Shown here one piece after another: positions 8,363 through 64,000 of a stretch of DNA of 64,000 nucleotides (position 1 is the stretch's first letter; every line of letters begins with the position of its first letter). The stretch is from contig JAAEQR010000206.1 of the NCBI GenBank assembly GCA_024231215.1, positions 3,112 through 67,111 of the forward strand, given 5' to 3'. A program made the translations under genes and the position numbers. Below the pieces are notes generated by a model. The model had not been told where the DNA came from. It worked only from the letters and a program-made list of their open reading frames with translations, and made no database searches. This DNA is from PVC group bacterium. GTDB taxonomy: Bacteria; Omnitrophota; Gorgyraeia; B26-G9.

Positions 8363-8586
8363 ATAAGAGGACTATTCCAGATAAAACCGAAAGAGGGTTT
8401 CATTCATTAAAGCGGTTAAAGGAGAAAAGATTACCCGGTTCGATATGATTTCACACTAAAGGGCAAGGTGTTGTCGATCAAGTAGAGGTAAAATATAACT
8501 TAAAATAATTAACTAAAATAAACTGTTCACGTCAACGAAGGCGCTAGTTTGGGACTTAAGGTCTCAAGTTAGCGCCTTTTTTTATT
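8363..8586 (+). ncRNA. promoter-proximal leader transcript ending at an intrinsic terminator (lambda 6S/tR'-like arrangement), no ORF
   Basis: About 220 nt between the predicted transcription start and the terminator. It contains no ORF longer than 5 aa in the transcribed part. The next ATG (8588) follows the T-run directly. Confidence 0.3.
8539..8586 (+). terminator. rho-independent terminator
   Basis: GGCGCTAgtttgggacttaaggtctcaagtTAGCGCC stem followed by TTTTTTTATTT. Confidence 0.6.
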
Positions 8587-8587
8587 T

Positions 8588-8878: not shown

Positions 8879-8879
8879 T

Positions 8880-10934
8880 ATGCCAAACATAATGAGAGCA
8901 GATTTTAGAGCAATAAAATCATCTGATTTTCAACGTGTGCAACAAATCTTCAAAGAACGTGAGGACGCACGTATATACCACCAAAGCAGCATAGACAGAG
9001 GTTTGAGGGCGTGGCGGTATTATTTTGCCCTTTCCGGGTATCAGTGGCCTGAAAAAGAGCTTGCTGTCTTGAAGGATGAGGACAGGCTACCATATCAATA
9101 TGATGTTATCTCACCAAAAATTAACACTATGGCCGGTGCAATTATAACTGATATGCAGGAGCCTAATTGGGTTCCTATCGAAGGCGAAAAGACTACAACG
9201 ACTGAAGCGGTCATTGATTGCTTTAGCAGCGACAAAGAATTAACTAATTGGGATCCGGTTATGGTCCAATGTGTTCTTGGTGGGCTAATCCATGAGTCGT
9301 GGATACAAATGATTGAGACCACTGAGTATAACCCTAGTGGAAATATCGGCTTAGAATATATACGAGATGGCTCGTTGATTACTGATTCGTATTGGAAAAG
9401 TAATAGTGACAAACAACTTAAAAAAGCATGGAAAAGCCAGTATTTTACCGCTGAAGGCCTTGCACATAAATATGACAAAATGAGCGACAAGATAAGGCAG
9501 GCAATTGAGCAAGAAAAAAAAGGTGTTGACGGTGCGCCTACAGATGCTGTAGAACAAAGACAAAAGTTTGCCGGAAAAGTTGGAGCTGAATATGAAGTTA
9601 TAGAGGAAATGTGGCTTGAAATCATAAAAACAAAACGCTTGGTAGGCAGAAAAGAGGGTGAGTTTAAAAGGATTCCATTTCCTGTAACCGACAACCGCGA
9701 ATATTTGGAATTGTTTGCCGAACAAAACGGCATTGATTGGGAGACCGTAGACGCAGAGCCTTATAATGATATTGTATATCACGCAACTGCTATTTGTCCT
9801 TCATTAGATCCGCACATAATACTCAATGATGAAAAGCCGCGAATCCAAGTTAAGAGATTGCCTATATTTCTTTTTACCACAAAAAGGCATGATGGTAAAA
9901 ATAAAGGACTTGTAGAATCTATAATGGATTTGCAAACCACTCTAAACAAAAGAGTTAATTTAGAATCGGAGTTGATTGATAAAGCTAATGGGGGAATGAC
10001 GATATTAAATGAAGACCTTTTCGATGGTGATACCATAAAAGAAGCTGAACTTCAAAAAAACCTTAACAATCCAAAAAAATCAATGTTTGCTCGTTTTACA
10101 CCGGGGGTTCCGACCAGAGAAGAAATAACTCCAAAACAATACCCTTCACAGATTATGACACAAATTGAGTTAATGCTTAATACGTTGCTGCCTATTACAA
10201 GTGGCGTTTCTGATGCGTGGAGTTCTGAGAGTTCACAAGGTGAAAGCGGAGTCCTTTATGAGCGTAAAGTCCAAATGAATAAAATCGGGACTCTTATAAT
10301 GGACAAAGCTGTTAAGCAATTAATTAATAATCTTGGCGAGGCCTATTATTATCAATGGCAAATAACATACGCAAAACTACCGCGAGAAATAACAAAGCGC
10401 GGCGGAAAAGAGAAAATAATTTTAAACGAGAGTTTGCCGGATGGTTCCATAAAAAACTCTGTTGAGTATACGCCTCGATGCAGGGTAATAGTTACAGAAA
10501 ATTTGCAGTCTTCTACGCAACAATTAAGAAAAAGAACTATGGCAACTGAAATGCTACCACAAATTAACCCAGAAACAAACCAGCTTACATTTCAAAAGTT
10601 TTTGGGGATGTTGGTAAAAAATGTTGATGGATTGTCTGATGAAGAAAAAGATGAGTTTGAAGAGACTTTGAAACTTGAAGAAGCGGTTGCCATGACATCT
10701 AATATCAATTTAATATCACAAAATATAGCTGCAACGAGTGGCGCGAGAGTAGCAAATGAACAAAGTCAAATGATGTTGGCTAAGATGGGCAATGAGCCAG
10801 GGGCCGGACAGGTTCAAGAGCAGATTACGCCTCCAGGTGAGCAGGTTCAGGATGTGGTTACGCCACCACCTATACAGCAGCCACAAGAAGCAGCGGCGGC
10901 GACAAGCCCAGATACAGAAGAGGTAACAATTTAA
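8880..10934 (+). CDS. putative portal protein (positional inference)
   Basis: 684 aa. It directly precedes the scaffold-like and capsid-like genes. Q/P-rich C-terminal tail. No motif verified. Confidence 0.35.
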   Translation: MPNIMRADFRAIKSSDFQRVQQIFKEREDARIYHQSSIDRGLRAWRYYFALSGYQWPEKELAVLKDEDRLPYQYDVISPKINTMAGAIITDMQEPNWVPIEGEKTTTTEAVIDCFSSDKELTNWDPVMVQCVLGGLIHESWIQMIETTEYNPSGNIGLEYIRDGSLITDSYWKSNSDKQLKKAWKSQYFTAEGLAHKYDKMSDKIRQAIEQEKKGVDGAPTDAVEQRQKFAGKVGAEYEVIEEMWLEIIKTKRLVGRKEGEFKRIPFPVTDNREYLELFAEQNGIDWETVDAEPYNDIVYHATAICPSLDPHIILNDEKPRIQVKRLPIFLFTTKRHDGKNKGLVESIMDLQTTLNKRVNLESELIDKANGGMTILNEDLFDGDTIKEAELQKNLNNPKKSMFARFTPGVPTREEITPKQYPSQIMTQIELMLNTLLPITSGVSDAWSSESSQGESGVLYERKVQMNKIGTLIMDKAVKQLINNLGEAYYYQWQITYAKLPREITKRGGKEKIILNESLPDGSIKNSVEYTPRCRVIVTENLQSSTQQLRKRTMATEMLPQINPETNQLTFQKFLGMLVKNVDGLSDEEKDEFEETLKLEEAVAMTSNINLISQNIAATSGARVANEQSQMMLAKMGNEPGAGQVQEQITPPGEQVQDVVTPPPIQQPQEAAAATSPDTEEVTI

Positions 10935-35742: not shown

Positions 35743-35925
35743 TTATTCCTCCTGGTTAATTAATTTAAGGGACCATAATTGCGCTTGCTCCAAATTGGTA
35801 AGAACAAGTGCTTTTGCCCTAATGTTACAATTAGGGGAATTAAAATTTTTTAACTCCTGTATTATCTTATCGATAGATCTGTTAGTGTCGTTAACCGGAA
35901 ATGTTATTTCTTCTCCCATATCCAA
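35743..35925 (-). CDS. small hypothetical protein (60 aa)
   Basis: SD GGAGGTTGGATATG. Abuts the downstream small gene. Confidence 0.4.
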   Translation of the reverse strand: MDMGEEITFPVNDTNRSIDKIIQELKNFNSPNCNIRAKALVLTNLEQAQLWSLKLINQEE

Positions 35926-35996
35926 CCTCCTATAGTAAAATTAATAACCAAACCACTCCTATTAGAGAGGCAATTAATGTTATATATATTATTGTT

Positions 35997-37583: not shown

Positions 37584-37606
37584 TATAAACTCCGGGGAAA
37601 AGAGGG

Positions 37607-52662: not shown

Positions 52663-53244
52663 TTGATTAATGTGGCTACAAGAAAGAAAATATCCTCAAG
52701 AAAACTAACCCAAATGGAGCTTGCGTTCTGCTATGAATATGTAGCAAACAAGTTCAACGGGAAGCAGGCCGCAATAGCCGCTGGATACAGTGTAAAGACA
52801 GCAGAAGTACAAGCATCGGACTTATTAAGTAGACCTAAGCTGAAACTCAAGGTAAAGCAGCTCACAGATAAGTATCTAAAAAAGGTAGAATATACCGGCG
52901 AATCCATTCTAAACGAATTAGCAATATTAGGGTTTTCTGATATGAATGATATGTTAAACGAGGATGAAAATGGTGATTTAACATTGAAATCATTAAAAGA
53001 TATGGGATATAACACACGGTGCATCCAACAATTGGAAATAACTAATACAACGCGATCATTTAAGGACTCCACAGAGACCCAAACAGACCAAAAAATCAAA
53101 TTTAAGCTGTATGATAAGAGAGCAACATTAGAATTAATAGGAAAAAACCTACAGCTATTCACGGATAGAATACACCACACAGGTGAAGTGAACAACACAG
53201 TACAAGTATACATTCCTGATAATGGCCGAAATAACAAGGATTAA
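52663..53244 (+). CDS. terminase small subunit
   Basis: Immediately upstream of and overlapping the large terminase. N-terminal HTH-like segment KLTQMELAFCYEYVANKFNGKQAAIAAGYS, typical of small terminase subunits. Confidence 0.5.
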   Translation: MINVATRKKISSRKLTQMELAFCYEYVANKFNGKQAAIAAGYSVKTAEVQASDLLSRPKLKLKVKQLTDKYLKKVEYTGESILNELAILGFSDMNDMLNEDENGDLTLKSLKDMGYNTRCIQQLEITNTTRSFKDSTETQTDQKIKFKLYDKRATLELIGKNLQLFTDRIHHTGEVNNTVQVYIPDNGRNNKD

Positions 53245-55180
53245 ACCGCAGGCCGGCCCTCAAGAAAAGTTTTTATCATCCAATGCAGATATAGTAATAT
53301 TTGGTGGTGCAGCATACGGCGGAAAGTCATTTGGGTTGTTGCTGGAATCAATTAGATATATACAAGATCCACGATATAATGGAGTAATATTTCGAAGGGA
53401 ATCACCACAAATAACATCCGGTGGAGGATTATGGGATACGGCGGGGCAGATATATCCTCATGTGGGCGGAATAGCGAACGAGGGGAAATTAAAATACACA
53501 TTTCCTACAGGGGCATACAATAAATTCACTCATTTACAATATGAAAAAGATAAGCTTAATCACCAGGGTGCACAATATGTTTTTATAGGATTTGACGAAT
53601 TAACTCATTTTTCAGAAACACAATTTTGGTATCTGCTCACACGTAACCGCCCACCATCAGGATGTAATATCAGGCCATATTGTCGATGTACAACGAATCC
53701 GGAGGCTGATAGTTGGGTAAGAGAGCTAATAATATGGTGGATTGATGAAAACACAGGGTATGCTATACCTGATAGGTCTGGAATTGTACGATATTTTACG
53801 CGAATTGACGAAGAAATCATATGGGTGGATAAGGATTGGACAGATGAAAGCGGAAATAAGGCAAGGTCTATTACATTTATACCTTCATTTTTAGAAGATA
53901 ATCCATTGGGTATAGCTGCTGACCCTATGTATCAGAGCAACTTACAAGCACAAGATAAAGTAACACGTGAACGGCTATTGAAGGGAAATTGGAATATAAC
54001 ATATAAGGGTGGAATGATGAATCCAGGCTGGTTTAAGATCCTAGAAAATTTCCCGCCTATGAAATATGTACGGTATTGGGATAGGGCCGCGACTGAGCCC
54101 AAAGACGAAAATGATGACCCAGATTGGACGGTGGGGGCTAAGTGTGGGATGCATGGAGGGGAGTTATATATAGAGGATATAGTCCGTTTCCGTGATACTC
54201 CAGCCCAAAATGAGGAAAAAATATTAAATTGTGCGGATAATGACGGCTATGATGTGTCTATTGGGTATGAAATAGAACCTGGAAGCGCTGGCGTTGAAGT
54301 CGCCGAACATTATCAAACTAAGATATTGAAAGGTTATACGGTAATATTAGACAGGCCAAAAGGTAATAAAGTGGAGCGGTGTAAGCCCTGGGCGGCACTT
54401 GCGGAACATGCACATGTATACATCAAAAAAGCCGCTTGGAATAGGCAATTTCTTGCTGAAATAGGCAGTTTTCCACTTGAAAAAAAAGACCAAGTAGACG
54501 CGGTGTCCGGTGGATATAAGATGCTGACAAGAGATAAGTATATTTTTCCAGCATTTAAATTGTCGGATACAAAAAAAATAACAATAGAATGGGAACCCAA
54601 GAAAAGTAAGGCCCATATGCACCATTACGGAGCAATGGTACAACTGCCGGACATGAGCCTGTGGATGCTGGAGGTGTTGTATCATGCAATTGATAACAAA
54701 ATGTATGTATATGGGTGCTGGAAAACCAATAATCCGGCTCCTGCGCTGGTTGTGCCTGTGATAATTAGCAGAATGCATCTCAAAGAGTTCATGATTAAGC
54801 GCTTGTTGGTCTCAGATCACATAATGCATGCCATAGCGCCAAAAAAAGCACCGTATTATTTTTACCGCAAGGAATTTATCAAGAAAAAATGTAGGCCGAA
54901 ATTAAGTGAAAGTATATTATACGATGAATCAGGCTCAATTGTGATGGCTACTGAAATGTTTATGAGGCAGCAAATAATATTTAGCCATGAAGCTAAACCA
55001 GCAGCACAGCAGGTGTCGGGCTGGACAATTGACAAGGGGAAGCCGTCTAAGGAGAACAGTGCGTATTGCGAAGGCCTGCTAATGATTATATCAGAGCTGA
55101 AAAGGATGAGAATAATACAGAAAAAGCCACCCAAACCAAGGGATTATAAAATAGTTAGAACAGTTGCAAGAAATTTTTAA
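53222..55180 (+). CDS. terL: terminase large subunit
   Basis: Walker A-like ADIVIFGGAAYGGKSF near the N-terminus. Walker B-like FIGFDELTHF. 652 aa with a C-terminal nuclease-sized domain. Confidence 0.75.
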   Translation: MAEITRIKPQAGPQEKFLSSNADIVIFGGAAYGGKSFGLLLESIRYIQDPRYNGVIFRRESPQITSGGGLWDTAGQIYPHVGGIANEGKLKYTFPTGAYNKFTHLQYEKDKLNHQGAQYVFIGFDELTHFSETQFWYLLTRNRPPSGCNIRPYCRCTTNPEADSWVRELIIWWIDENTGYAIPDRSGIVRYFTRIDEEIIWVDKDWTDESGNKARSITFIPSFLEDNPLGIAADPMYQSNLQAQDKVTRERLLKGNWNITYKGGMMNPGWFKILENFPPMKYVRYWDRAATEPKDENDDPDWTVGAKCGMHGGELYIEDIVRFRDTPAQNEEKILNCADNDGYDVSIGYEIEPGSAGVEVAEHYQTKILKGYTVILDRPKGNKVERCKPWAALAEHAHVYIKKAAWNRQFLAEIGSFPLEKKDQVDAVSGGYKMLTRDKYIFPAFKLSDTKKITIEWEPKKSKAHMHHYGAMVQLPDMSLWMLEVLYHAIDNKMYVYGCWKTNNPAPALVVPVIISRMHLKEFMIKRLLVSDHIMHAIAPKKAPYYFYRKEFIKKKCRPKLSESILYDESGSIVMATEMFMRQQIIFSHEAKPAAQQVSGWTIDKGKPSKENSAYCEGLLMIISELKRMRIIQKKPPKPRDYKIVRTVARNF

Positions 55181-55343: not shown

Positions 55344-55547
55344 ATGTATTTTGTGTATTACGGTGGCTCCGGAGAGGTAAGCGCATTGATAAATTTCGAG
55401 ACAATGTCAGGGGCTACTAATTACATCGAGGGAAAAATAGAGCAGGGACACTATTTGTCCGACTTTGTTGTGATATGTGGAAGAAGAAAAAAACTGAGAA
55501 TGGAGCCAGTTATAATTAAAACGGGAATAGAGATAGTAGATGAATAA
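55344..55547 (+). CDS. small hypothetical protein (67 aa)
   Basis: SD TAAGGAGATGTGACATG. Confidence 0.35.
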   Translation: MYFVYYGGSGEVSALINFETMSGATNYIEGKIEQGHYLSDFVVICGRRKKLRMEPVIIKTGIEIVDE

Positions 55548-55902
55548 ATCACCAGCAATAAAAGTAAAGCCCAATATATGGGATAGCAAAGAGTTTGAGA
55601 AGCCCTACCACGGGGCAAGGAGAAATAGAGGGATGCCTAGCGCGATGGAGCCAATACAGGAATATACAGAGCAGGGCCGCAAGAATTTCGACAAGTGTTT
55701 CAAGCAGGAAGACAAGGTAAACAATTGCGGTAAAGTGAAAAAATGTAAGAAAAATTGCGAATATCGCAGCATGAGAACTGAGAGCGAGTGTGCGTGGTAT
55801 ATTGATATTGACAAGTGCGATACGAAGAAAGTAAAGAAGCCTAAACTACTAAAGGTAGATTACAGGCCGCCACTAACGGGAATGGGAATATATGATAAAT
55901 AA
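55540..55902 (+). CDS. Cys-containing basic protein (120 aa)
   Basis: Intact ORF, ATGA overlap. CGKVKKCKKNCEYRS ... C..C. Confidence 0.4.
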   Translation: MNKSPAIKVKPNIWDSKEFEKPYHGARRNRGMPSAMEPIQEYTEQGRKNFDKCFKQEDKVNNCGKVKKCKKNCEYRSMRTESECAWYIDIDKCDTKKVKKPKLLKVDYRPPLTGMGIYDK

Positions 55903-56269
55903 GAAAGATATAAATGTATTAATCAGAGATCCACTACCAGGAAGATCTTTTCGCTGGCCTATTACATATAAGGAGAAAGAGATTGGAACGATATTATTTA
56001 ATTGTTGGCCCAAAGAGTCGGATTCAAAAATAATTACTGGGGTGAGGAAAGAAGCTAAGATGATGTGTACATTGGAACATATTGAGGTGTTTGAAGAGTA
56101 TAAGCGGCAGGGAGCTGCATACAGGGCTCTTGTGTTGTGGCTTCCCGGCTTTGATCGAGTTGACACACGGGCGAACTCATGGGCAGCCATGAAGCTAATT
56201 GTAAAAGCTGGTTTTCGCACAGGAAATAGTGTGGATTATATATGGGAGAGAGAAAAAAAAGATGATTGA
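55892..56269 (+). CDS. possible GNAT-type acyltransferase (weak)
   Basis: VFEEYKRQGAAYRALVLWL resembles GNAT motif A. Low certainty. Confidence 0.3.
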   Translation: MINKKDINVLIRDPLPGRSFRWPITYKEKEIGTILFNCWPKESDSKIITGVRKEAKMMCTLEHIEVFEEYKRQGAAYRALVLWLPGFDRVDTRANSWAAMKLIVKAGFRTGNSVDYIWEREKKDD

Positions 56270-56501
56270 TGAGCGTATATATAAAAATGCGTATAAGCCC
56301 TATGATATCGTGACCAACGAAATCGGAGACGTGGGAGTTATAACAGAGACCAGTGTGGATGAATAAACCTGTTGGTGGTAGAAAAAATCCCGCATATTTT
56401 TGTGTTCGTGATTCAGAAAATTATTATTCATCCGGCATGGGCTGGACAATACCTGTTGACACAGAAGGTCTCATTGTTGTTACATTAAGAGAGGTGAAGA
56501 A

Positions 56502-56795
56502 GTGAAAAGTAGTACCATAACAATAGTAGAAACCGCTGATTATCCGGAAAGCTATGTGGAATTTGTCGCGTGGGTTACTAAGTGGGTTCGGAAAATACCA
56601 GAGGAGTATTTAAATAAGGCAGAAATATCATTTAACCAAACAGCCTGGGATGGTGTAGCAGTTGAAATATATTACAAAAACATGGAGATTGAAGAAGCAA
56701 ATAGGCTAATAAAGAAGTTTGAAGTAGAGGAAAAAGAGATAGCTGAATATCTTAGGCTACGTGAAAAATACAAGTACCATAGGAATTTAGAGTGA
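56502..56795 (+). CDS. hypothetical protein (97 aa)
   Basis: SD GAGAGGTGAAGAAGTG, with GTG or ATG start uncertain. Overlaps the next gene. Confidence 0.35.
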   Translation: MKSSTITIVETADYPESYVEFVAWVTKWVRKIPEEYLNKAEISFNQTAWDGVAVEIYYKNMEIEEANRLIKKFEVEEKEIAEYLRLREKYKYHRNLE

Positions 56796-57658
56796 AAACA
56801 GCAATAACAACATTAGTAAGCTCAGATAAGTTTCAACATTATCTACCACTATATATATATGTAGTACGCAAGGAGTATCCTGAGTATTTTCTAAAGACAT
56901 TTATCACGGGAAAAATTAATCCATTAGTTGCCAAGGCGCTTGATTATCTAAGGAGCCAGGGGGTGCGGTTTGATGAGCCCATAGAGGTATTTAAGGATAT
57001 TAAGCTAATTGATTCCACTGCTAACAGCTTAAGGTTCTTGACAAGTGAGAGATATTTTGAGGGCATGGATAATGTAATATATACCGATGCTGATTTGTTA
57101 TTGTTTCGAAATAGCCCCACATTAGAACAATGGCATATCAAAAGAATGAAAAAAATGAAAACATGTTATGCAGGACATCACGGGCCTTGGAGGAAAAAGT
57201 ATAGGCCGGAAATATCTAAGGCAGGTTGGAGGGGCAATTTTGAGCGGGTTTCAGCAGGATTTGTCATGGTTACACAGCAATGGTTTAAGAAGACGAGAAA
57301 AGCCAGGAAATCCTTTTTGAATAAAGCTAAGAAGGGTAAATTAGGAGGGTTCAGGGAATTTGATGAGGTTATGTTGGGGTGCATTGTGAAAAGCTCTGGC
57401 CTTCCTATGCCTCCATTTAGGTTTTGTAAGAAGCAACGGGGAATCCATCTGGGAGATTTTAAAAAGCAGATGAGTCGTAGATTTACAAGAAAAAAGAAAA
57501 TGAAAAAATGTGTAGCACCTCAACCAGTATTACAATTTCAGGCCTTGGAAAAGGACCCTATTTGGGTTGGGGTGCTAAGGATAATGGAAAAATGCCCATA
57601 TCTAATGGAAATAATAGATAATGCAAGAAAACGTTTAAGGCGGAGGTTGAAGTATTGA
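56792..57658 (+). CDS. putative GT-A-like glycosyltransferase/nucleotide-sugar transferase (288 aa)
   Basis: VIYTDADLLLF DXD-like motif. Very basic C-terminal tail. Weak. Confidence 0.3.
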   Translation: MKTAITTLVSSDKFQHYLPLYIYVVRKEYPEYFLKTFITGKINPLVAKALDYLRSQGVRFDEPIEVFKDIKLIDSTANSLRFLTSERYFEGMDNVIYTDADLLLFRNSPTLEQWHIKRMKKMKTCYAGHHGPWRKKYRPEISKAGWRGNFERVSAGFVMVTQQWFKKTRKARKSFLNKAKKGKLGGFREFDEVMLGCIVKSSGLPMPPFRFCKKQRGIHLGDFKKQMSRRFTRKKKMKKCVAPQPVLQFQALEKDPIWVGVLRIMEKCPYLMEIIDNARKRLRRRLKY

Positions 57659-57984
57659 TGTTTAGTTTCATGAGCAAAAAAAAGGCTAAAGAAGAGATAA
57701 AATCTCTGGTGAAAGACTGGGGTGACATCAGAGGTAAAGAGATAAAAAAATGGTTGAAAGACGAGCTTGAACTTTTATTTGGGTGGGGTGAAAGTGGCGA
57801 CTATTACGATTGGGACAACGACGGTGATTCAAAAATAAAAAGAATAATGTTTAATATATTTGATGAAAAGTTGGAAAAGGCACTTAAAAAAGCTGTTGAA
57901 AAACATATTAACGGTGAAGAGTTTGTTGATAAAATTATTGAACGTATTAACAGAAAGCAGTTGGGAAGGAAGAGATGGGAATAA
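57655..57984 (+). CDS. hypothetical protein (109 aa)
   Basis: ATGA overlap. K/E-rich. Confidence 0.4.
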   Translation: MMFSFMSKKKAKEEIKSLVKDWGDIRGKEIKKWLKDELELLFGWGESGDYYDWDNDGDSKIKRIMFNIFDEKLEKALKKAVEKHINGEEFVDKIIERINRKQLGRKRWE

Positions 57985-58256
57985 AAAGCGAAACTGAATG
58001 CCCTAAGTGTAGGGCAACGTATCATAACATAAAGCATATAAGAAAAGCAAACAAAGTAATGATTGTATGTTCCGATTGTGCCTATGAGTGGAGTGTATCT
58101 GCGCTGGACAAAAAAGTTATAACAGAGGAAGCGGCTATAAAAATAATAAGCAAAAGCGATTTAGCAGAAATGAAAGCAATTGTGTCGGAAAATATGGTGG
58201 AAAAAATTGTAGATGTAATGCTGAATAAGATTATCGGTTTGGTAGACGACGAATGA
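57975..58256 (+). CDS. small zinc-ribbon protein (93 aa)
   Basis: CPKC...(19 aa)...CSDC motif. Confidence 0.4.
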   Translation: MGIKSETECPKCRATYHNIKHIRKANKVMIVCSDCAYEWSVSALDKKVITEEAAIKIISKSDLAEMKAIVSENMVEKIVDVMLNKIIGLVDDE

Positions 58257-58639
58257 TACAACAAAAACCAAAAACAGCCAAGGGGTACTACTACTATCAT
58301 AGATTGATGTGGAGTAGGCTGGTTAAGGAGATGGAAAAGGGGAAAGTTCTTGACACTGGCTTAAAATACAGTGTATGGAATAGTTTGTTTGATTTTGATG
58401 GCGAGGAGTGCAATCACTGCTTTGCTTGCATGTGGAAAGATGATGATGTGACGGTTCGGGAGTATGTGTACTATATCGCCGAAGATGGCGATTGTGAAGA
58501 TGAGTGTTTGTTGCATTATACGCCAGAAGATGGAAAGTGCTTAGGTGGATTATACGAAGCAGCAACCGGAGTAAGTCAATACAGAATAGAAGCGGCTAAG
58601 GAAATACGTGATTTACCTATGAAGGATAAGTGGAAATGA
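58253..58639 (+). CDS. Cys-rich hypothetical protein (128 aa)
   Basis: CNHCFAC...CEDEC. ATGA overlap. Confidence 0.4.
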   Translation: MIQQKPKTAKGYYYYHRLMWSRLVKEMEKGKVLDTGLKYSVWNSLFDFDGEECNHCFACMWKDDDVTVREYVYYIAEDGDCEDECLLHYTPEDGKCLGGLYEAATGVSQYRIEAAKEIRDLPMKDKWK

Positions 58640-59367
58640 AATTCCAATTAATAATAAGAGGACGCAACTGCACAAAGTACGTTAAAAAATGTCTTGATTC
58701 GGTGTTAGCACAGACACATAAGGATTGGAAAGCAACTGTATGCCTCGATGCTCCTACGGATAATAGTTATGAAAAAGCTATAAAATATACGAAGGATAAA
58801 AGAATATCTGTATATCGCAACAAAAAACGGCTTGGTGTAGCACACAACATGGTAGAGACTATAATGTTAGCAGCACCTGACGACACCGATATATTAGCTA
58901 TAGTAGACGCGGACGATGAAATACCAAAAAATGCTTTACATATGGTAAATAAAGAATATGAAAAGAACCCTCTATTGAGATTGACGTATGGCTCTTTCTG
59001 GCGGTTGGACAAGAAGAGACGTACGAAGACGAGTAGAAGATATAAGAGCAATGTTAGTGTTAGAAAACAGGATTGGCATGGGAGCCATTTAAAGACGTTT
59101 CGCTATGATCTATACAAACGTATTCCACACAGGTATTTTAAACATGACAACAACAATAAGTGGTTTATGGCGGCGTCGGATTTGGCTCTCATGTTTCCTC
59201 TGTTTGATTTGTTAGGTGTTGATCGGTATAAAACACACACGAAATACGTAAAAGAAATAACGTATAAATGGAATAGAACATCGGATAAAACGCGAGGGCA
59301 TGAACAATACAGGAACAAGCAATTGATTAAGAAAAAGAAACCATTGAAGAGGTTGGAGCATGTGTAG
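58630..59367 (+). CDS. family-2-like glycosyltransferase (GT-A)
   Basis: N-terminal LIIRGRN...CLDSVLAQTHKDWKATVCLDAPTDNS ... AHNM resembles the GT2 core (S..Q.....e.i.vDD.S.D ... N.G). Confidence 0.5.
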   Translation: MEMKFQLIIRGRNCTKYVKKCLDSVLAQTHKDWKATVCLDAPTDNSYEKAIKYTKDKRISVYRNKKRLGVAHNMVETIMLAAPDDTDILAIVDADDEIPKNALHMVNKEYEKNPLLRLTYGSFWRLDKKRRTKTSRRYKSNVSVRKQDWHGSHLKTFRYDLYKRIPHRYFKHDNNNKWFMAASDLALMFPLFDLLGVDRYKTHTKYVKEITYKWNRTSDKTRGHEQYRNKQLIKKKKPLKRLEHV

Positions 59368-59662
59368 CAGTTGCGATCAAAAAGAAAAGTGTGACAAGAA
59401 AAATAAGACAGAACTACCGAACAAATACATTAAGGATGTTGTGGGTGTGTTTGCCGATTGGCTGAAAAAGGAAGCGCCCAATATGATTAAGAAAGGTGAG
59501 CTGAATAGGAGATGTTATTCTATCAATAGAAGCTTTAAAACAAAAAGGCAGGCCATGTTTTACAATCCACTGAAAAGAGATGCAGAAAAATTTAAAGGCG
59601 TGTCAGTGCATATGCTAGTGGAATTTGATTTTGAAAAGATTCCAAAGATGGAGGATGAGTGA
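59360..59662 (+). CDS. small Cys-containing protein (100 aa)
   Basis: MCSSCDQKEKCDKK N-terminus. Overlaps neighbours. Confidence 0.4.
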   Translation: MCSSCDQKEKCDKKNKTELPNKYIKDVVGVFADWLKKEAPNMIKKGELNRRCYSINRSFKTKRQAMFYNPLKRDAEKFKGVSVHMLVEFDFEKIPKMEDE

Positions 59663-60045
59663 GTACAATATTATTTTCAGGGAGATTTGACAGGCCGCAT
59701 ATAGGGCATATGATTACTATTGGCAGGTTGGGACAGCAATATGATAAGGTAATTATTGTGGTGTTGGATTACCCAGAGCAGAAGTATCCAATAGATGAGC
59801 GGGTAAATACTTTGCGTAATGCTCTGTACCTAATGAGAATGAGAGGATCATATCAAATTGTGGTCTCAAAACACCATTTTGGTGAAATAGAGACAAAACA
59901 ATTAAAAGAAGAAATCCCCTGGTTTGATGTGTATGGCAGTGGCAATAGAGAGGTTTTGGAGAATATGAAACAAAATATATATCCAACACAAAGAGTAGAA
60001 CACATACCCCGATACCCCGGATATTCAGCGAGTGAGGAAGGGTGA
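59659..60045 (+). CDS. cytidylyltransferase-family nucleotidyltransferase (TagD/LicC-like, HxGH motif)
   Basis: ILFSGRFDRPHIGHM matches the (T/H)xGH signature of the cytidylyltransferase superfamily (GtFDllHaGH). 128 aa. Confidence 0.55.
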   Translation: MSTILFSGRFDRPHIGHMITIGRLGQQYDKVIIVVLDYPEQKYPIDERVNTLRNALYLMRMRGSYQIVVSKHHFGEIETKQLKEEIPWFDVYGSGNREVLENMKQNIYPTQRVEHIPRYPGYSASEEG

Positions 60046-60821
60046 AAACACTATTGGTATTATCGGTAGGCGTAGAATTTGGGTGGCTGCTATGCACTTT
60101 TATTCCAGCTATACGTTACAAATCACGTGGATATAACAGGACAGTAATTGTATGCGACCCAGAACATAGATACTTATACCAGGATTTTGCAACGGATTTT
60201 GTGAATTATAATAAGAAGATAGAGGGTGTGGGCTACTATGGCTGGTCTCCGAAAAAGAAACTAAAAATGCCAAGAGGAATATCAAGAAAATATCCAGGGG
60301 CTAAAATAATAACACCAACAAAAAAAATATGCACTGATGCACCAATGGTGTATTATAAGTATGGAAAATATAATGACAAATTGCATTCAGATATAATTAT
60401 TCATGCACGGTCTGAGGCAAAATTCAACAGAGAGAAACGAAATTGGCCTATACACCATTATGTAAAACTAATTAAAAAGCTGAGGGCACACAGGGATTTA
60501 TCTGTGTGTTCGGTGGGGACGAAGGAAGGCGCGCACCATATACCGGGCACATTGGATTTGAGAGGAATCCCATTAGAGGCGTTGTGTAATAGAATGGCGA
60601 GTAGTTCAGTAGTTGTAGGTTGTAGCTCGGGGCCTCTTCATTTGGCGAGTTTGTGCGGATGCCCCCATGTGGTATGGACTGACAAGAAATATCAGGAAGC
60701 GATTAAGGGTACAAATAAGGATAGGTATAAAAAATTGTGGAACCCATTCGGTACACCGGTGAAAGTTATAGATGTGGGGTGGCAACCGAGCATTGAGGTT
60801 GTTTATGAGGTATTAAGATGA
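60042..60821 (+). CDS. putative GT-B glycosyltransferase (GT9 heptosyltransferase-like)
   Basis: ASSSVVVGCSSGPLHLASLCGCPHVVW resembles the GT9 motif (gnDSGpmHlAaA.g.P.v.l). Confidence 0.4.
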   Translation: MKTLLVLSVGVEFGWLLCTFIPAIRYKSRGYNRTVIVCDPEHRYLYQDFATDFVNYNKKIEGVGYYGWSPKKKLKMPRGISRKYPGAKIITPTKKICTDAPMVYYKYGKYNDKLHSDIIIHARSEAKFNREKRNWPIHHYVKLIKKLRAHRDLSVCSVGTKEGAHHIPGTLDLRGIPLEALCNRMASSSVVVGCSSGPLHLASLCGCPHVVWTDKKYQEAIKGTNKDRYKKLWNPFGTPVKVIDVGWQPSIEVVYEVLR

Positions 60822-60991
60822 AAGATGATATGAAAAAAACTACAGGGGTGTGTGATTCGTGTGGAGACAAGGAGTGCATAGAATGTGGTAGTAAATTACA
60901 CATAATAGAAATAAGTTTTTATAATGACGAAGAAGACAACGCCTGTTTGTGTAGAAGATGTTTAAGGAGTGCTTTGGAGATGTTGAAATGA
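60818..60991 (+). CDS. small Cys-rich protein (57 aa), paralog of the 61097-61297 gene; not in ORF track
   Basis: CDSCGDKECIECG...CLCRRCLRSALEMLK, compare ...CSICI...WICKDCLKKALEALK. Frame and stop verified by hand. Confidence 0.35.
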   Translation: MKDDMKKTTGVCDSCGDKECIECGSKLHIIEISFYNDEEDNACLCRRCLRSALEMLK

Positions 60992-61089
60992 AAATAACGT
61001 TCTGCGGAAATAATAGAAAATGGGGTGGTGTGGCGATCAAAGATATTTATGATTTCTTGTATTGTCAAGATTGTTTGAAAATTTTATAA
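60988..61089 (+). pseudogene. truncated duplicate of the N-terminus of the downstream glycosyltransferase (33 codons)
   Basis: MKITFCGNNRKWGGVAIKD..., compare MKITFFGNNKKWGGLANNG at 61294. The nucleotide similarity is visible directly. Confidence 0.5.
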
Positions 61090-61096
61090 GGGAATT

Positions 61097-61297
61097 ATGC
61101 CAAGAGAAGTAAACCAAAAAAACTATTATCAAGGCCCGGACAACGGTGCTATATATTATCAGGGTGAAAACGAATGTAGTATATGCATTACCCAAACAGA
61201 TGTAGTGGCATTAGAAAATGATATTATAGATGATAATGGTCATTTGATATGGATTTGCAAAGACTGCCTAAAGAAAGCGCTGGAGGCGTTAAAATGA
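61097..61297 (+). CDS. small Cys-rich protein (66 aa)
   Basis: CSICI...ICKDCLKK. Stop overlaps the glycosyltransferase start (ATGA). Confidence 0.4.
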   Translation: MPREVNQKNYYQGPDNGAIYYQGENECSICITQTDVVALENDIIDDNGHLIWICKDCLKKALEALK

Positions 61298-62265
61298 AAA
61301 TAACATTTTTTGGAAACAATAAAAAATGGGGTGGCTTGGCCAACAATGGGGGTAGTCGAACCATACTCCTAAGTGCTGAGACATTGCGTGAATTAGGACA
61401 CGGGGTGAATGTAGTAGCATGTAGTGATAAATTTACATGGTTTCCACATCCACCAATTAAGCATAAGGTATCAAGCAATACAGATGTTGTAATTGCTATA
61501 TCAATAAGTGATGTTAAAGATATAATGGATAAGTATCCGGGTAAAAAATTAGCGTATTGGGCTCGTCCGTGGGAGAGTTGGCATAGTTCAGAAAAGAAAT
61601 GCCTTAAATTGTTAAAAAGGTTTAGATTGTTTGGCGGGACAATAATGGTTAATAGTGGCTGGCAGAAAGATTATTTAGAAACTAAAAACATTACAAGCCA
61701 TTTGGTGTATTCAGGACAGGATATAGAATGGAAGATGGAGTCGGGTTACAATCAACCGTATGATAGGATGGTAATAGGCTGCCAATATTCAAGTAAACCA
61801 CGTAAGGGCTGGAAGGAATTTAAAAAGATAGCCAAGTTATTAGGTGATAAATATGAATATGTAGCCTTTGGGTCTGAGAAGTGTAAGAATAAATTTATAA
61901 GCAGATATCTTAGAAATCCAGCAAGGGAGAAATTGAATGAATTTTACCGATCAATGGACGTATTTTTCATAGGAAATCAACTTGAAGGTTTTCTAAATGT
62001 CGGCTCTGAAGCAGTAATCAACGGCGCTTTGTTAATATGTAATAGCAATCCAAGAAGTGGAGCACATGACTATTGCAATGAAGAAACAGCGCATATGTAT
62101 AATTATACTGGTGATGGTAAGCGCACAGGGCTATTAGGTTTTCAAATAATGCGAATAATGGACAATTTAGATTTTACAAAAGTAGCCAAATGCCAAAAAT
62201 TAATACGTGAGAAGATTGGTACGAGAAAAAAGAATATGGAGAGGATGATTGAGGTGTTGGAATAA
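61294..62265 (+). CDS. putative GT-B glycosyltransferase (GT4-like)
   Basis: Start at MKITFFGNN (61294) is preferred over the 61249 ORF start. Gly-rich N-terminal Rossmann-like segment GGLANNGGSRT. 324 aa. Confidence 0.45.
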   Translation: MKITFFGNNKKWGGLANNGGSRTILLSAETLRELGHGVNVVACSDKFTWFPHPPIKHKVSSNTDVVIAISISDVKDIMDKYPGKKLAYWARPWESWHSSEKKCLKLLKRFRLFGGTIMVNSGWQKDYLETKNITSHLVYSGQDIEWKMESGYNQPYDRMVIGCQYSSKPRKGWKEFKKIAKLLGDKYEYVAFGSEKCKNKFISRYLRNPAREKLNEFYRSMDVFFIGNQLEGFLNVGSEAVINGALLICNSNPRSGAHDYCNEETAHMYNYTGDGKRTGLLGFQIMRIMDNLDFTKVAKCQKLIREKIGTRKKNMERMIEVLE

Positions 62266-62636
62266 TGGCAATACTATGTTTTTTTTATATGGGAAATTGT
62301 GCGCATTGCAAAAAAAAGAATGTGGAATGTGTGTATTTAGAAGAAGATTATGAGGATAAAATTATCTATCTTTGCAAAGAGTGTTTTGGCGAGGCATTTA
62401 AAAAAACTAATTATGTTATAAAACAATGTGATCACGGTAACTGTTGCCTTCGACAGCCAGAGGACGAATGGTTTGTCAAAGAAGACTTAACTGAATGTAT
62501 ACATATAAGCAAAAATTTTGATTATTATTTATGCAAAAAGTGTGTAAAGGAAAAGGTTGAAAAAGTTAACAAACATAAATTTGATGGGAAAAGTCTGTCG
62601 CCAGCAGAATATGAGGGGCCTTGGGGAGGCTTTTAA
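62265..62636 (+). CDS. Cys-rich protein (123 aa) of the same small-protein family
   Basis: CAHCKKK...YLCKECFGEAFKK...CDHGNCC...YLCKKCVKEK repeats the (W/Y)(I/L)CK.C motif. Confidence 0.45.
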   Translation: MAILCFFYMGNCAHCKKKNVECVYLEEDYEDKIIYLCKECFGEAFKKTNYVIKQCDHGNCCLRQPEDEWFVKEDLTECIHISKNFDYYLCKKCVKEKVEKVNKHKFDGKSLSPAEYEGPWGGF

Positions 62637-62654
62637 TTTAATGGAGGATATTTT

Positions 62655-63272
62655 GTGATTAAACTAAGCGGACATTTAGTAAGGAAGCCAAGAGCGCAGA
62701 TAGCAGCACCTGTAGATGGGTGCCACAGAAACGGATCTGACGGTTTTTTGAAGGGGGCTCATGCTATGTACCTTAATGGTAAGCTTTTCATGCCACATGG
62801 GATGGTGTCTATATATTATTACACAAGTGGTGACAAAGGATTAAAAATATACGTATCTGCAAAACATGGATGGCATAGCAAAAAGAAGTATGTAAGAGCT
62901 GTTAGAAATCGAATGAAGAAATATCATGAGAAAGGTATTTGTCCTAAGCCATATAAAATAATATCGGTAGAGGTAGACTTTAATTATAAAAACAAAGCTG
63001 TCTATCACAAAAAGGTATGGGGTTTAGAGGTAGATCATTGTTTTTGGCCGGAAGATTTTGAGGATTACGCAAATGGCTACCCATTAACTTGGTGTGAGGG
63101 AAAGTATCCCGGCTACTCTCCAGAGGGATTCAAGAAGTTCAAGAAAAAATTAGATAAAATACTGTCACACGAGGATAAGAAAACACTAAGAAAGCTTGGT
63201 GACTCATACAAATGTGGAGATGTAATGTACTGTACTAAAAAACTAAAATGGGAATTTGTGGATTTGGGCTAA
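62655..63272 (+). CDS. hypothetical protein (205 aa)
   Basis: Intact ORF with SD-like GGAGGATATTTTGTG (GTG start possible). Confidence 0.4.
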   Translation: MIKLSGHLVRKPRAQIAAPVDGCHRNGSDGFLKGAHAMYLNGKLFMPHGMVSIYYYTSGDKGLKIYVSAKHGWHSKKKYVRAVRNRMKKYHEKGICPKPYKIISVEVDFNYKNKAVYHKKVWGLEVDHCFWPEDFEDYANGYPLTWCEGKYPGYSPEGFKKFKKKLDKILSHEDKKTLRKLGDSYKCGDVMYCTKKLKWEFVDLG

Positions 63273-63435
63273 TATATGAACAAAACCAAAGACGGGATAC
63301 AGCAACTCAAAATGTCTGAGTTGCAAGAAATTGCAAGAAGAAGCGGCGAAGAGAAGGAGGCAAGCATGATTATAGAGCTTAAAAAGGAGATGACGAAATT
63401 TGACAAGCTAATTTTAGAAGCGCAGAAAAATATTT

Positions 63436-64000
63436 ATGAGATACTCTAAAAAACATAAGAAGCTATTTGTTCACATACCACGTTGTGCAGGCAAATCAAT
63501 AGTTGTAATGATGAAATCTCATTACAAAGATGTAAGGCTTGTAAATAAGTCGTGGACTCATTCCAGACTTAAAGACGTGCGGAAGAATATCGATCTCTCT
63601 AAATACGAGAAAATAGCAGTGGTAAGAAATCCCTGGGAACGAATGGTAAGCTTATATTGTTTTCTTAGGCAGAGAAAAGCTTGGTTTGACACCAGAAAAG
63701 GGAAGAAAGTGTTAAATAAGAATATGCCTGAATTCACTGACTGGCTTATAAATTACGGAAAGAAATCACACAATATAAAAACATCTGACACCCCACAATT
63801 TGATTGGGTTTCATTGAATGGAAAGGTAGCGGTTGACCATCTCATAAGATATGAAAAGTTAGAAAAGGGTGTTAAAAAAGCATTTGGATTCTGTGATTTG
63901 GCGGAGTCACACACAACTTATCATTCACACTGGAAAACATACTATAATGAAAAAAGTGATAAATACATAAGAAGAATATTTAAGAAAGATATTGAGGTGT
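63436..64000 (+). CDS. sulfotransferase-family protein (partial, runs off window end)
   Basis: N-terminus LFVHIPRCAGKSI matches the Sulfotransfer_2/3 start (fvHIPKtgGTS, PAPS 5'-phosphate loop). Confidence 0.45.
   Translation, partial: MRYSKKHKKLFVHIPRCAGKSIVVMMKSHYKDVRLVNKSWTHSRLKDVRKNIDLSKYEKIAVVRNPWERMVSLYCFLRQRKAWFDTRKGKKVLNKNMPEFTDWLINYGKKSHNIKTSDTPQFDWVSLNGKVAVDHLIRYEKLEKGVKKAFGFCDLAESHTTYHSHWKTYYNEKSDKYIRRIFKKDIEV

Follow-up and report, generated by a model that had tools for sequence, protein, structure and literature searches.

The two ends of the analysed window, a stretch of 64,000 nucleotides belonging to an uncultivated tailed phage of about 72 kb, are with high probability parts of a single gene island that lies between the genes of the large terminase subunit (TerL) and the portal protein and was cut open by the window. 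We have little doubt that the function of this island is glycan assembly. Our explanation as a whole, one terL-portal island whose soluble, late enzymes build a decorated glycan, likeliest on virion proteins, is favoured here with some reserve.

Source contig and the genes flanking the island

The records of all looked-up window proteins place them on a contig of 71,941 bp, which leaves 7.9 kb outside the window, and their accession order follows the gene order from MCP4651124, the first window gene, to MCP4651210, the last. The preliminary description had taken the window for a whole genome, which these records refute, and its size for the glycan locus (about 16 kb, a quarter of the genome) needs revision because the window holds only 64,000 of the contig's bases. 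The glycan block visible in the window is 17.4 kb (55.2-64.0 kb plus 1-8.58 kb) and, should the contig be closed into a circle, the distance from TerL to portal is likely about 25.6 kb, or about 36% of the total length. We infer this closure solely from relatives and from the matching size, the relatives' contigs (70.7, 74.4 and 68.6 kb) being similar to the 71.9 kb of the source. In one relative, comparison of the contig start with a piece near its probable end as a test of circularity gave a diverged repeat of 84-97% identity, not an exact one. Among GenBank phages there were no homologs of the tested island core genes, the portal or the capsid-like gene.

All features described here are on the + strand. 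The island is anchored at its 5' side by TerL (53222..55180, 652 aa, phrog_979 E 2e-140), in which Terminase_6N covers residues 27-259 and Terminase_6C residues 285-429; past the nuclease domain the protein continues C-terminally for about 220 aa, an extension that is kept in relatives. Of the sizeable genes in the strand block leading into the island, the first encodes the small terminase subunit (TerS, 52663..53244, Pfam Terminase_2 E 1e-23). The island starts 164 nt past the TerL stop, and its 3' anchor is the portal protein gene (8880..10934, phrog_156 E 1e-23; P22_portal in precomputed Pfam), directly preceded by a small gene at 8588-8878. The 3' edge is a hairpin resembling an intrinsic terminator (8537..8579; a 20-bp stem and then a T-run, predicted -27.6 kcal/mol), situated 8 nt upstream of the ATG of that small gene and found by a terminator scan, although promoter and terminator scans taken overall performed at chance level. 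L027, L029 and a relative of 74 kb also have a hairpin at the equivalent site, its stem differing in sequence.

Gene content of the island

Next to the terminase, a small conserved ORF of 120 aa (55540..55902) has the same place after TerL in L007 (43% identity) and in the 74-kb relative. The following 125-aa ORF (55892..56269), previously called a possible GNAT, is not confirmed as such: it has a loose KxxGxA motif only, Pfam and NCBIfam gave no match and the PDB none of relevance, and its single-sequence AlphaFold (AF2) model is unusable (pLDDT 33). The gene at 56792..57658, overlooked earlier, encodes a GT8-like (LgtC-like) GT-A glycosyltransferase: a 37-sequence profile, with R81, D99, D101, E192 and H219 invariant, matches LgtC (1ss9/1g9r, E 4e-5) through the DxD motif, and phmmer finds 428 cluster representatives. 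It is a core island gene, being present in every island-bearing relative (L007, L001, the 74-kb relative and L056). A small zinc-ribbon protein (57975..58256; Zn_Ribbon_YjdM E 9e-6, 26.1 bits, below the Pfam cutoff of 30.8 bits) is one of several CxxC mini-ORFs dispersed across the island and has a homolog inside the island of the 74-kb relative.

Several of the assignments made from the letters alone held in the profile searches. The GT2-family glycosyltransferase (58630..59367) is firmly supported (Glycos_transf_2 E 2e-17, 64 bits where the cutoff is 23; 56% identity to its L007 homolog), with matches to EpsE, TuaG and PglI-type enzymes. For the proposed HxGH cytidylyltransferase (59659..60045, 128 aa, TagD-sized), the nucleotidyltransferase part stands (RPHIGH motif; CTP_transf_like E 6e-6, 26.9 bits where the cutoff is 21), while NCBIfam is ambiguous between cytidylyl- and adenylyltransferase; the product is probably a CDP-alcohol-forming cytidylyltransferase, and the island of the 74-kb relative has a homolog of 50% identity. 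The GT9-like GT-B gene (60042..60821, 52% identical to its L007 homolog) has weak yet consistent matches under the curated cutoffs (Pfam Glyco_transf_9 E 1.2e-3, NCBIfam heptosyltransferase I E 6e-3). The same can be said of the GT4-like GT-B gene (61249..62265), for which Pfam alone gave E 0.07 and a four-sequence family profile (A4) matched the GT-B C-domain of the mannosyltransferase WbaZ-1 (2f9f, E 1.4e-4). Its true start is likely 61294; the N-terminus in relatives aligns from MKITF, and the exact product from 61249 is absent in the protein collection. Upstream, a remnant of its 5' end has been duplicated (60988..61089; 53 nt 81% identical to 61294-61346). A conserved protein of 205 aa (62655..63272; 44-53% identical in L001, L003 and L007, 58 invariant columns), with no match in Pfam, NCBIfam or PDB, always adjoins the GT4-like gene in relatives, just upstream of a sulfotransferase or methyltransferase. 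The sulfotransferase reported at the window end (63436..64000) is confirmed as a carbohydrate-type PAPS enzyme (PF03567, Sulfotransfer_2, E 1.4e-8, 35.6 bits where the cutoff is 22; motifs HIPRCAGKS and VVRNPWERMVS); it does leave the window, by just 17 nt (about 5 codons and the stop), and is 100% identical to the 193-aa NCBI protein MCP4651210.1.

The window start was described as continuing on the same strand in the same gene style, and glycan-type domains were indeed found there. A class I SAM methyltransferase (373..894, Methyltransf_24 E 1.3e-14; island homologs of 56-63% identity in L003, L030 and L063) is followed by a conserved 226-aa protein with weak GT8 resemblance (876..1556, Glyco_transf_8 E 8e-3; homologs in L003 and L030), an FkbM-family methyltransferase (1553..2179, Methyltransf_21 E 5e-12, TIGR01444 E 7e-14; 74% identical to its L063 homolog) and a small phosphotransferase, weakly assigned as protein-kinase-fold or choline-kinase-like (2176..2667; Pkinase at E 1.4e-6 and Choline_kinase at E 3e-5 fall short of their cutoffs, and RIO1 at E 1e-4, 22.4 bits, barely attains its cutoff of 22 bits). 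A 456-aa protein (3553..4923) has a sulfotransferase domain in its C-terminal half (Sulfotransfer_3 E 5e-6), and its residues 212-456 are 57-62% identical to proteins of 236-248 aa in L003, L030 and L063. Further on are an NAD-dependent sugar-nucleotide epimerase/dehydratase (4916..5788, Pfam Epimerase E 2e-53; GalE-like E 2e-41, below the equivalog cutoff) and a GT-B group-1 (GT4-type) glycosyltransferase (6105..7088, Glyco_trans_1_4 E 8e-6, 26.6 bits, just below the Pfam cutoff of 27; homologs of 53-56% identity in L030 and L063). The last and best-conserved island gene encodes a LicD-like phosphotransferase of 409 aa (7081..8310; LicD motif at residues 208-231, E 1e-7; NCBIfam cholinephosphotransferase Mf1 E 5e-8), found with 44-60% identity directly 5' of the portal in L014/L027, L029, L030, L063 and the 74-kb relative.

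The visible island thus holds at least six glycosyltransferases (GT8-like, GT2, GT9-like, two GT4-type and the weak GT8-like), two SAM methyltransferases, two sulfotransferases, the epimerase/dehydratase and a phospho-alcohol set consisting of the LicD-like phosphotransferase, its HxGH cytidylyltransferase-like partner and the small kinase-like protein, with function assignable for only about half of the island ORFs. In the island of the 74-kb relative the HxGH and LicD-like genes have a GDPD glycerophosphodiesterase gene beside them, a hint at glycerol phosphate as the phospho-alcohol.

Gene order in related phages

That the two window ends form one locus had been proposed before, and comparison with related phages supports this through synteny, while changing the size and genome share of the locus. 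In IMGVR_UViG_3300030616_000250 (IMG/VR, 74,434 bp), TerL (6845-9037) and the portal (35664-37730) are separated by 26.6 kb with about 48 ORFs, almost all on the + strand, and this one co-directional island carries homologs of genes from both ends: those starting at 55540, 56792, 58630 and 59659 as well as 373, 4916, 7081 and 8588. A relative tiled from L010, L011 and L030 (L011/L030 overlap 100% identical over 3680 bp, L010/L011 99.7% over 8.5 kb) has an island of 20.9 kb in which TerL is followed first by the window-end homologs, then by a middle block of different glycan genes (about 10 kb) and finally by the window-start homologs, which lead up to the portal. Homologs of both ends also occur on the single 17-kb contig L003. 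Island size differs across the clade: it is 7.4 kb in the distant relative L056, and L042 is without an island and has a TerL-portal gap of 2.3 kb.

It is highly unlikely that the ends are instead separate loci, be it in a prophage or chimeric contig flanked by host polysaccharide genes or in two clusters with 7.9 kb of unrelated sequence between them. The contig does sit in a bacterial MAG, labelled 'PVC group bacterium', and the 7.9 kb outside the window includes the contig ends. In addition, a search for the methyltransferase encoded after the sulfotransferase in three relatives yielded no source-contig protein, so that the outside part does not simply repeat the middle block known from relatives. 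However, the relatives hold their homologs in a contig-internal island, the island edges lie close to the TerL stop and at the conserved hairpin, and the source contig agrees in size with genome-length contigs. The portal relatives are binned across unrelated phyla (PVC, Bacteroidales, Methanomicrobia and Paceibacterota), which is the pattern of mis-binned free phage contigs, and no integrase was found among the ORFs scanned.

Possible acceptors of the glycan

Under the single-island explanation, the genes would be transcribed co-directionally with terS-terL late in infection, with transcription presumably stopping at the hairpin terminator before the portal operon. Using nucleotide sugars, PAPS, SAM and CTP from the host, the enzymes could synthesise in the cytoplasm, with no lipid carrier and no exporter, a methylated and sulfated glycan with a phospho-alcohol group, probably glycerol phosphate. 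The likeliest acceptor would be the phage's own virion proteins, a target that we suggest tentatively. No protein-specific glycosyltransferase family was recognised in the island, which counts against it, as does the number of genes: about 40 is, to our knowledge, far more than in any phage virion-glycosylation system shown. On the other hand, modification genes near the portal have a precedent in Cluster O mycobacteriophages, where an O-methyltransferase, two glycosyltransferases and an N-acetylglucosaminyltransferase were proposed by the authors to modify the capsid (PMC4351075), those four genes lying between portal and protease. Capsid and tail-tube proteins of mycobacteriophages have since been shown to carry glycans (Freeman et al. 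2023, as described in PMC12619734).

Remodelling of the host envelope is possible but, in our judgement, rather unlikely. The soluble transferases would then act at the cytoplasmic membrane face on host lipid-linked intermediates, with LPS core, undecaprenyl-linked O-antigen or capsule units or teichoic-acid-like polymers as acceptors and host flippases or ABC transporters as exporters, and the phage might benefit, for example, by blocking superinfection or by keeping progeny from adhering to debris. Enzymes of the GT9-like (heptosyltransferase-type) and LgtC-like GT8 kinds are classically those of the LPS/LOS core and suit such a target equally, the EpsE, TuaG and PglI-type enzymes matched by the GT2 use lipid-linked acceptors, and LicD with a cytidylyltransferase is the classic phospho-alcohol module for teichoic acid or LOS. 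Large cyanomyoviruses, moreover, have as many as 22 genes for cell wall or LPS, read by the authors as host-surface modification (PMC12801897). Nevertheless, neither the 17.4 kb of visible island nor the 26.6 kb of the relative's contains an initiating phosphoglycosyl transferase, flippase, polymerase, ligase or transporter, and a 19-residue hydropathy scan of both detected no polytopic membrane proteins and no ORF with more than a single borderline hydrophobic stretch, such stretches occurring in seven ORFs altogether. The lack of an integrase among the ORFs scanned makes classical lysogenic serotype conversion unlikely, and the position of the island between packaging and assembly genes, co-directional with the terminase genes, points to late expression and thus to little gain in remodelling a cell that is soon to lyse.

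Glycan hypermodification of the phage DNA for restriction escape, as T4-like and other phages do on hydroxymethylated bases, appears extremely unlikely, even though the island adjoins packaging genes and the assembly of mono- to oligosaccharides on DNA is an established activity of phage glycosyltransferases (Pyle et al. 2024, as cited in PMC12619734). The window ORFs scanned included no dCMP/dUMP hydroxymethylase, thymidylate-synthase-like gene, DNA kinase or deazaguanine pathway, and the gene content is too variable for a function tied to the phage polymerase and packaging machinery. We also know of no precedent for sulfotransferases, LicD or sugar methyltransferases in DNA modification, which likewise counts against it.

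Returning to a decorated virion, the glycan would be strain-specific, since island genes are rapidly reshuffled between relatives. This turnover is shown even among near-identical genomes: in L007 and L008, otherwise 100% identical contigs, a sulfotransferase has been deleted between 9-bp direct repeats, L011/L030 differ from L008 by a 1.4-kb indel of two genes, and in L013 a GT1 gene is split without an indel.

A probable single glycan locus between the terminase and portal genes

The window is a tailed phage. Its small terminase gene (52663-53244, + strand, Terminase_2 E 1e-23) and large terminase gene (TerL, 53222-55180, + strand, phrog_979 E 2e-140, with Terminase_6N and 6C domains) lie at one end of the window and the portal gene (8880-10934, + strand) at the other, the latter being followed by a long run of large + strand genes that continues up to about 35.5 kb. 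The last gene of this structural block (30357-35279) encodes a 1640-aa protein with a 'polyvalent protein'-type ADP-ribosyltransferase domain (ART-PolyVal, E 5e-9), and this protein may be an ejected internal virion protein. A minus-strand block (35.6-52 kb) carries a YqaJ exonuclease, an ERF recombinase, an HNH protein and many genes to which Pfam assigned no function. No integrase was found among the minus-strand ORFs scanned in the window, where the YqaJ/ERF recombination pair is present instead, and no tRNA genes were found in the window. TerL and portal genes are usually neighbours, and as they lie here at opposite ends, the stretch between them through the window edges, with the portal as its 3' anchor, is the glycan locus (hereafter the island) that the preliminary description proposed to be split by the window origin.

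The size of the island depends on the source contig. The sulfotransferase at the window end is 100% identical to NCBI MCP4651210.1, recorded on a contig of 71,941 bp in a MAG labelled 'PVC group bacterium', and nine more window proteins are found on the same contig with accessions in ascending order (MCP4651124 for the first window gene, MCP4651190 for TerL and MCP4651207 for 62265-62636). The preliminary description took the window for a whole genome, which does not hold, as 7,941 of the 71,941 bases of the contig fall outside the 64,000 of the window. If the contig closes, the distance from the TerL stop to the portal start is 8,820 + 7,941 + 8,879 = 25.6 kb, or 36% of the contig, compared to 26.6 kb in a 74-kb relative. 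The earlier estimates, about 16 kb and one quarter of the genome, were too low. About 33 genes of the island are visible and about 45 are likely.

The relatives found in ENA, JGI, Logan and IMG/VR data with the sulfotransferase and the portal are a clade of uncultivated phages, in which the long contigs (68.6, 70.7 and 74.4 kb) are comparable to the 71.9 kb of the source. Gene order in related phages had been put forward as a check, and both gene sets of the window ends were indeed found in one TerL-portal island. The 74-kb relative (IMGVR_UViG_3300030616_000250, 74,434 bp, portal 48% identical, read from base 1 to 47,652) has TerL at 6845-9037 and the portal at 35664-37730, and the 26.6 kb between them are contig-internal and hold about 48 ORFs, nearly all on the + strand. 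They include homologs of the window-end genes 55540, 56792, 58630 and 59659 (genes are named by their start coordinates) as well as of the window-start genes 373, 4916, 7081 and 8588. In a second relative, tiled from three contigs (L011 and L030 identical over 3680 bp, L010 and L011 99.7% identical over 8.5 kb), the island of 20.9 kb begins with homologs of 55540, 56792, 58630, 60042, 61249 and 62655, continues over about 10 kb with other transferase and methyltransferase genes that have no window homolog, and ends with homologs of 1553, 876, 373, 3553, 4916, 6105, 7081 and 8588, followed by the portal. Both gene sets also occur together on a single 17-kb contig (L003). L063, L003 and the tiled relative share a block that encodes a GT1 protein (about 363 aa), a methyltransferase (about 178 aa), a Methyltransf_24 protein (about 214-238 aa) and a protein of about 196 aa, and homologs of this block are predicted for the 7.9 kb of the contig beyond the window. 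With this synteny in the relatives, the reading that the two window ends would form one locus between TerL and portal is well supported, and the earlier interpretation is right in substance, with a wrong premise about the window and numbers that were too low.

The ends of the 74-kb relative were compared as well. Its first 38 bases recur once elsewhere in the contig, and two pieces (L020 1-1214 and L021 9612-11879, the latter probably the contig end) share 84-97% identity for about 1.2 kb before the similarity is lost. Such a diverged repeat may stem from a wrap-around assembly of strain variants or from a duplication, and is no proof of circularity. The MAG labels of the portal relatives (PVC group, Bacteroidales, Methanomicrobia and Paceibacterota) come from four phyla or groups that are not related to each other, which makes them unreliable for the host. 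A host assignment from these mutually inconsistent labels was rejected, and the portal relatives look like phage contigs swept into bins.

Enzymes and boundaries of the island

The island starts 164 nt 3' of TerL, and most of the enzymes that had been named on the terminase side (55.9-64.0 kb) were recovered by profile searches. The GT2-like glycosyltransferase (58630-59367) has a GT2 match in Pfam with E 2e-17. The second sulfotransferase, from 63436 to the window end, is of the carbohydrate type with Sulfotransfer_2 above cutoff (PF03567, 35.6 bits vs 22), and the PAPS-sulfotransferase motifs 5'-PSB and 3'-PB are present as HIPRCAGKS and RNPWERMVS in this protein (P0001) and kept in P0002-P0008. 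It runs off the window end as described: the identical MCP4651210.1 is 193 aa long, so the window misses just five of its codons. In three relatives, a methyltransferase gene lies 3' of the sulfotransferase; a copy in the part of the contig outside the window was considered and rejected, as a profile search returned no such protein from the 71,941-bp contig. The proposed cytidylyltransferase is an HxGH nucleotidyltransferase (59659-60045, RPHIGH present, CTP_transf_like above cutoff), but NCBIfam is not decisive for a cytidylyl substrate, as the NMN-adenylyl, PPAT and generic cytidylyl models score about equally and all far below their equivalog cutoffs. For the GT9-like gene (60042-60821), two matches are consistent although both weak (Pfam E 1.2e-3, NCBIfam heptosyltransferase E 6e-3), and the GT4-like gene (61249-62265), for which Pfam alone gives E 0.07, has a family profile that matches the GT-B C-domain of WbaZ-1 with E 1.4e-4. 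PDB profile searches with the GT9-like family and with that of the 205-aa protein (62655-63272) gave no useful match. The possible GNAT (55892-56269) gained no support: no profile in Pfam, NCBIfam or PDB sequences matched it, the string KRQGAA is its sole resemblance to GNAT motif A, and its single-sequence structure model was unusable (pLDDT 33).

A sixth enzyme of this stretch, 56792-57658, had been missed. It is a member of a 428-cluster family absent from Pfam, and the family profile (A8, 37 sequences) matches LgtC (1ss9/1g9r, E 4e-5) over profile positions 12-158, including the DxD, with D99 and D101 invariant across the 37 sequences. Its single-sequence structure model was also unusable (pLDDT 32). 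Because the Pfam GT8 model gives no match to it, the protein would be a distant relative of GT8 rather than a curated member, probably an LgtC-like GT8 glycosyltransferase with a GT-A N-terminal nucleotide-binding region.

Smaller ORFs lie between the enzymes. The opening 53 nt of the GT4-like gene (61294-61346) recur with 81% identity at the start of a 33-codon ORF (60988-61089), which looks like the scar of a cassette recombination; the copy indicates that the GT4-like gene probably starts at 61294 and not at 61249. Small ORFs rich in cysteine (CxxC) were observed at 57975-58256, 58253-58639, 59360-59662, about 60830-60985, 62265-62636 and about 5850-5960, one of them with a zinc-ribbon match (E 9e-6) and one with a homolog in the island of the 74-kb relative.

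The window start was said to open mid-locus on the same strand with the same gene style, and its glycan-type genes are all closely packed on the + strand. They encode a Methyltransf_24 protein, an FkbM methyltransferase, a small kinase-like protein, a Sulfotransfer_3-domain protein, a NAD epimerase/dehydratase (E 2e-53), a GT-B group-1 transferase and a LicD-like protein. The latter (7081-8310) has the LicD-family motif GTLLG...D-x-D (Pfam LicD E 1e-7, 32.8 bits vs a cutoff of 22.6), the match being limited to the 24-residue motif region (208-231) of the 409-aa protein. Its FGTLLGIIREGGFI-SDRDLDH is invariant in three relatives, and a PDB profile search with the LicD-like family gave no useful match. 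A GDPD glycerophosphodiesterase gene in the island of the 74-kb relative hints at glycerol-3-phosphate and at a decoration with glycerol phosphate.

On the portal side, the island ends at a hairpin (8537-8579) with a 20-bp stem and a T-run, of which the position and structure are kept in three other lineages and the stem sequence differs. These boundaries would fit a single transcription unit of terminase and island genes that halts before the portal operon. Promoter and terminator scans were overall at chance level. A near-consensus promoter-like site, TTGACA-17-TATTAT (11 of 12 positions), precedes the hairpin by about 180 nt (region 8328-8579), and the two could bound a short transcript located between island and portal operon; Rfam had no family match in 8250-8650, a stretch that covers both. 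Between the end of the T-run and the ATG of 8588-8878 there are 8 nt, too few for an obvious ribosome-binding site.

Turnover of the island among relatives

The content of the island changes far more than its position. A distant relative (L042, portal 35% identical, TerL 43% identical over its full length) has 2.3 kb between TerL and portal and no glycan gene (L042 5636-9923), and in another one (L056 292-9962) a mini-island of 7.4 kb contains a GT8-like gene, a methyltransferase and a short LicD-like gene. From these two, the island appears to have grown at one fixed junction, at which the relatives have no island, 7 kb, 21 kb or 27 kb. In the 74-kb relative, window homologs were found for 9 of the about 48 island ORFs compared to 9 of the 12 downstream structural genes. 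Two genes make up the conserved core, a GT8-like one near TerL and a LicD-like one adjoining the portal, and they are usually accompanied by Methyltransf_24, the HxGH enzyme and the epimerase. The islands of the relatives also carry aminotransferase, acetyltransferase, oxidoreductase and formyltransferase genes.

Differences were detected even between nearly identical contigs. L007 and L008 are 100% identical on either side of a sulfotransferase gene (L007 6878-7516) that is lost in L008 (at about 5665) between two 9-bp direct repeats, AAAAACAAG, its first eight codons remaining. L011 and L030 have an extra two-gene insert of 1.4 kb compared to L008, and in L013 a GT1 gene is broken without an indel. 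Together with the range of island sizes, such gain and loss of genes between genomes otherwise 99-100% identical suggests that selection on the structure coated by the glycan is strong and fluctuates. The two-gene insert includes a 271-aa distant paralog (L030 2012-2827, 23% identity) of the 205-aa protein, so this family recurs within the island. An HNH/AP2-type endonuclease gene was observed beside the sulfotransferase inside the island of L003 (1455-2105), with a homolog at the island edge of L063 (225-830); it may be a homing endonuclease that adds to the mobility of the cassettes.

The probable product and comparable systems

In a hydropathy scan of the + strand ORFs of both the window island and the 26.6 kb of the 74-kb relative, no polytopic membrane protein was found; seven ORFs across both islands have a hydrophobic stretch, with a maximum of one per + strand ORF. 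Within these stretches, all membrane components of O-antigen and capsule pathways are thus missing, and glycan assembly would have to take place in the cytoplasm, with a soluble acceptor, or else on the inner side of the membrane. In the pathway that we propose, six transferases and the epimerase would build an oligo- or polysaccharide from host nucleotide sugars, two methyltransferases would O-methylate and two sulfotransferases sulfate it, and the LicD-like enzyme, supplied by the HxGH cytidylyltransferase-like enzyme, would add a phospho-alcohol decoration.

Virion proteins seem to us the most likely acceptor, an assignment we hold tentatively, as it is favoured by the position and direction of the genes, the solubility of the enzymes, the lack of lysogeny genes and the precedent in mycobacteriophages. 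Its main rival is the remodelling of host envelope precursors, which fits with the origin of several enzymes from LPS-type families and is in our view possible, if rather doubtful. The island resembles bacterial O-antigen and capsule loci in its GT2, GT4, GT8 and GT9 transferases, epimerase, methyl- and sulfotransferases, LicD module and hypervariable content among close relatives, but in the stretches scanned it has no initiating transferase, Wzx or ABC transporter, Wzy, chain-length regulator or ligase, and it sits within a phage packaging module. It also differs from the serotype-converting modules (gtrABC, Oac) that temperate phages carry, as there are no membrane GtrA/GtrB-type proteins and no integrase among the ORFs scanned. 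Glycosylation of the phage DNA is unlikely, because no dCMP/dUMP hydroxymethylase or other modified-base pathway was seen by Pfam among the 20 larger non-island ORFs. Taking the virion target further, it is conceivable, albeit improbable as a whole, that a clade of tailed phages of about 70 kb makes its own strain-specific coat with an island of about 25 kb and 45 genes, the soluble enzymes of which place sulfated, methylated and glycerol-phosphate glycans directly on virion proteins without membrane machinery, with cassettes swapped even within a population.

At its terL-portal junction, this new phage lineage has an unusually large and hypervariable island for glycan assembly independent of membranes, and a mid-sized phage here gives about a third of its genome to one compact, membrane-free glycan factory. 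To our knowledge, phage-encoded glycosylation is otherwise known on a small scale, with two to four genes in mycobacteriophages, or in large cyanomyoviruses. The Cluster O mycobacteriophages have a four-gene modification cassette (Corndog gp35-38) inside the packaging and head-assembly block and in the same direction (PMC4351075), and capsid and tail proteins of mycobacteriophages have been shown to be glycan acceptors, according to the account of Freeman et al. 2023 in PMC12619734. The cassettes encode soluble enzymes of the cytoplasm. Likewise, the glycosyltransferase and methyltransferase genes of the island encode soluble enzymes and lie on the same strand within the packaging and assembly block (TerL, island and portal are all on the + strand in the window, and are arranged in the same way in relatives). 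However, the Corndog and Che8-type cassettes have two to four genes compared to the about 33 visible and about 45 likely here, and lack sulfotransferases, a LicD module and sugar-nucleotide-modifying enzymes; the Corndog cassette lies between portal and protease and not between terL and portal.

The large cyanomyoviruses have genomes about three times larger, and their glycan genes are more scattered. The lytic P-SSM2, S-SCSM1 and S-SCSM2R encode a TagD-type cytidylyltransferase besides numerous glycosyltransferases and nucleotide-sugar epimerases, with up to 22 cell-wall/LPS genes (PMC12801897), whereas here at least six glycosyltransferases and LicD are visible in 17 kb of a 72-kb genome, in one compact island at a fixed position. 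In Megavirinae, virus-encoded and host-independent pathways make unusual bacterial-type sugars that virus-encoded transferases use for fibril glycans on the virion surface, and the gene clusters are clade-specific (PMC10117803). These clusters and the islands of the relatives have sugar-modifying genes of the same kind, a likeness that is a functional analogy only, and Megavirinae have eukaryotic hosts and genomes above 1 Mb, whereas the island is about a third of a 72-kb tailed phage. If the virion is the target, the island would be to phages what the fibril glycan systems are to giant viruses, and it would far exceed in size any other virion-glycosylation system known from a bacteriophage. 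It would also raise the questions of how a bacterial cytoplasm glycosylates proteins at such a scale and of what a sulfated coat does for a phage in sediment or soil, with adhesion, protection or evasion as possible roles.

No description of a comparable island was found in the full-text literature searched, which is not proof of its absence. Among 50,697 GenBank phage records, tblastn gave no match to the LicD-like, GT8-like and 205-aa core proteins; searches of GenBank phages with the portal and the capsid-like gene (tblastn) and with 55-64 kb (megablast) gave none either, and IMG/VR gave no match to a single-sequence TerL scan or to the profile of the 205-aa family. An exact 35-mer of the window end did not occur in IMG/VR, nor did peptide patterns of P0001 occur in GTDB representative genomes. 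Several enzyme families of the island are absent from curated libraries, among them the LgtC-like family with its 428 clusters, that of the 205-aa protein and that of the long LicD-like protein. Distant homologs of the sulfotransferase (22-27%) were found among GenBank phages in just two uncultured phages of 460-480 kb, and the closest TerL is that of Methanoculleus viruses (44%). Residues of about 430-652 of TerL (window 54510-55180) form an extension of about 220 aa C-terminal of the nuclease domain that has no Pfam match. The extension is kept in relatives (35% identity in L007, TerL lengths 663-762 aa) and is present also in L042, which has no glycan island.
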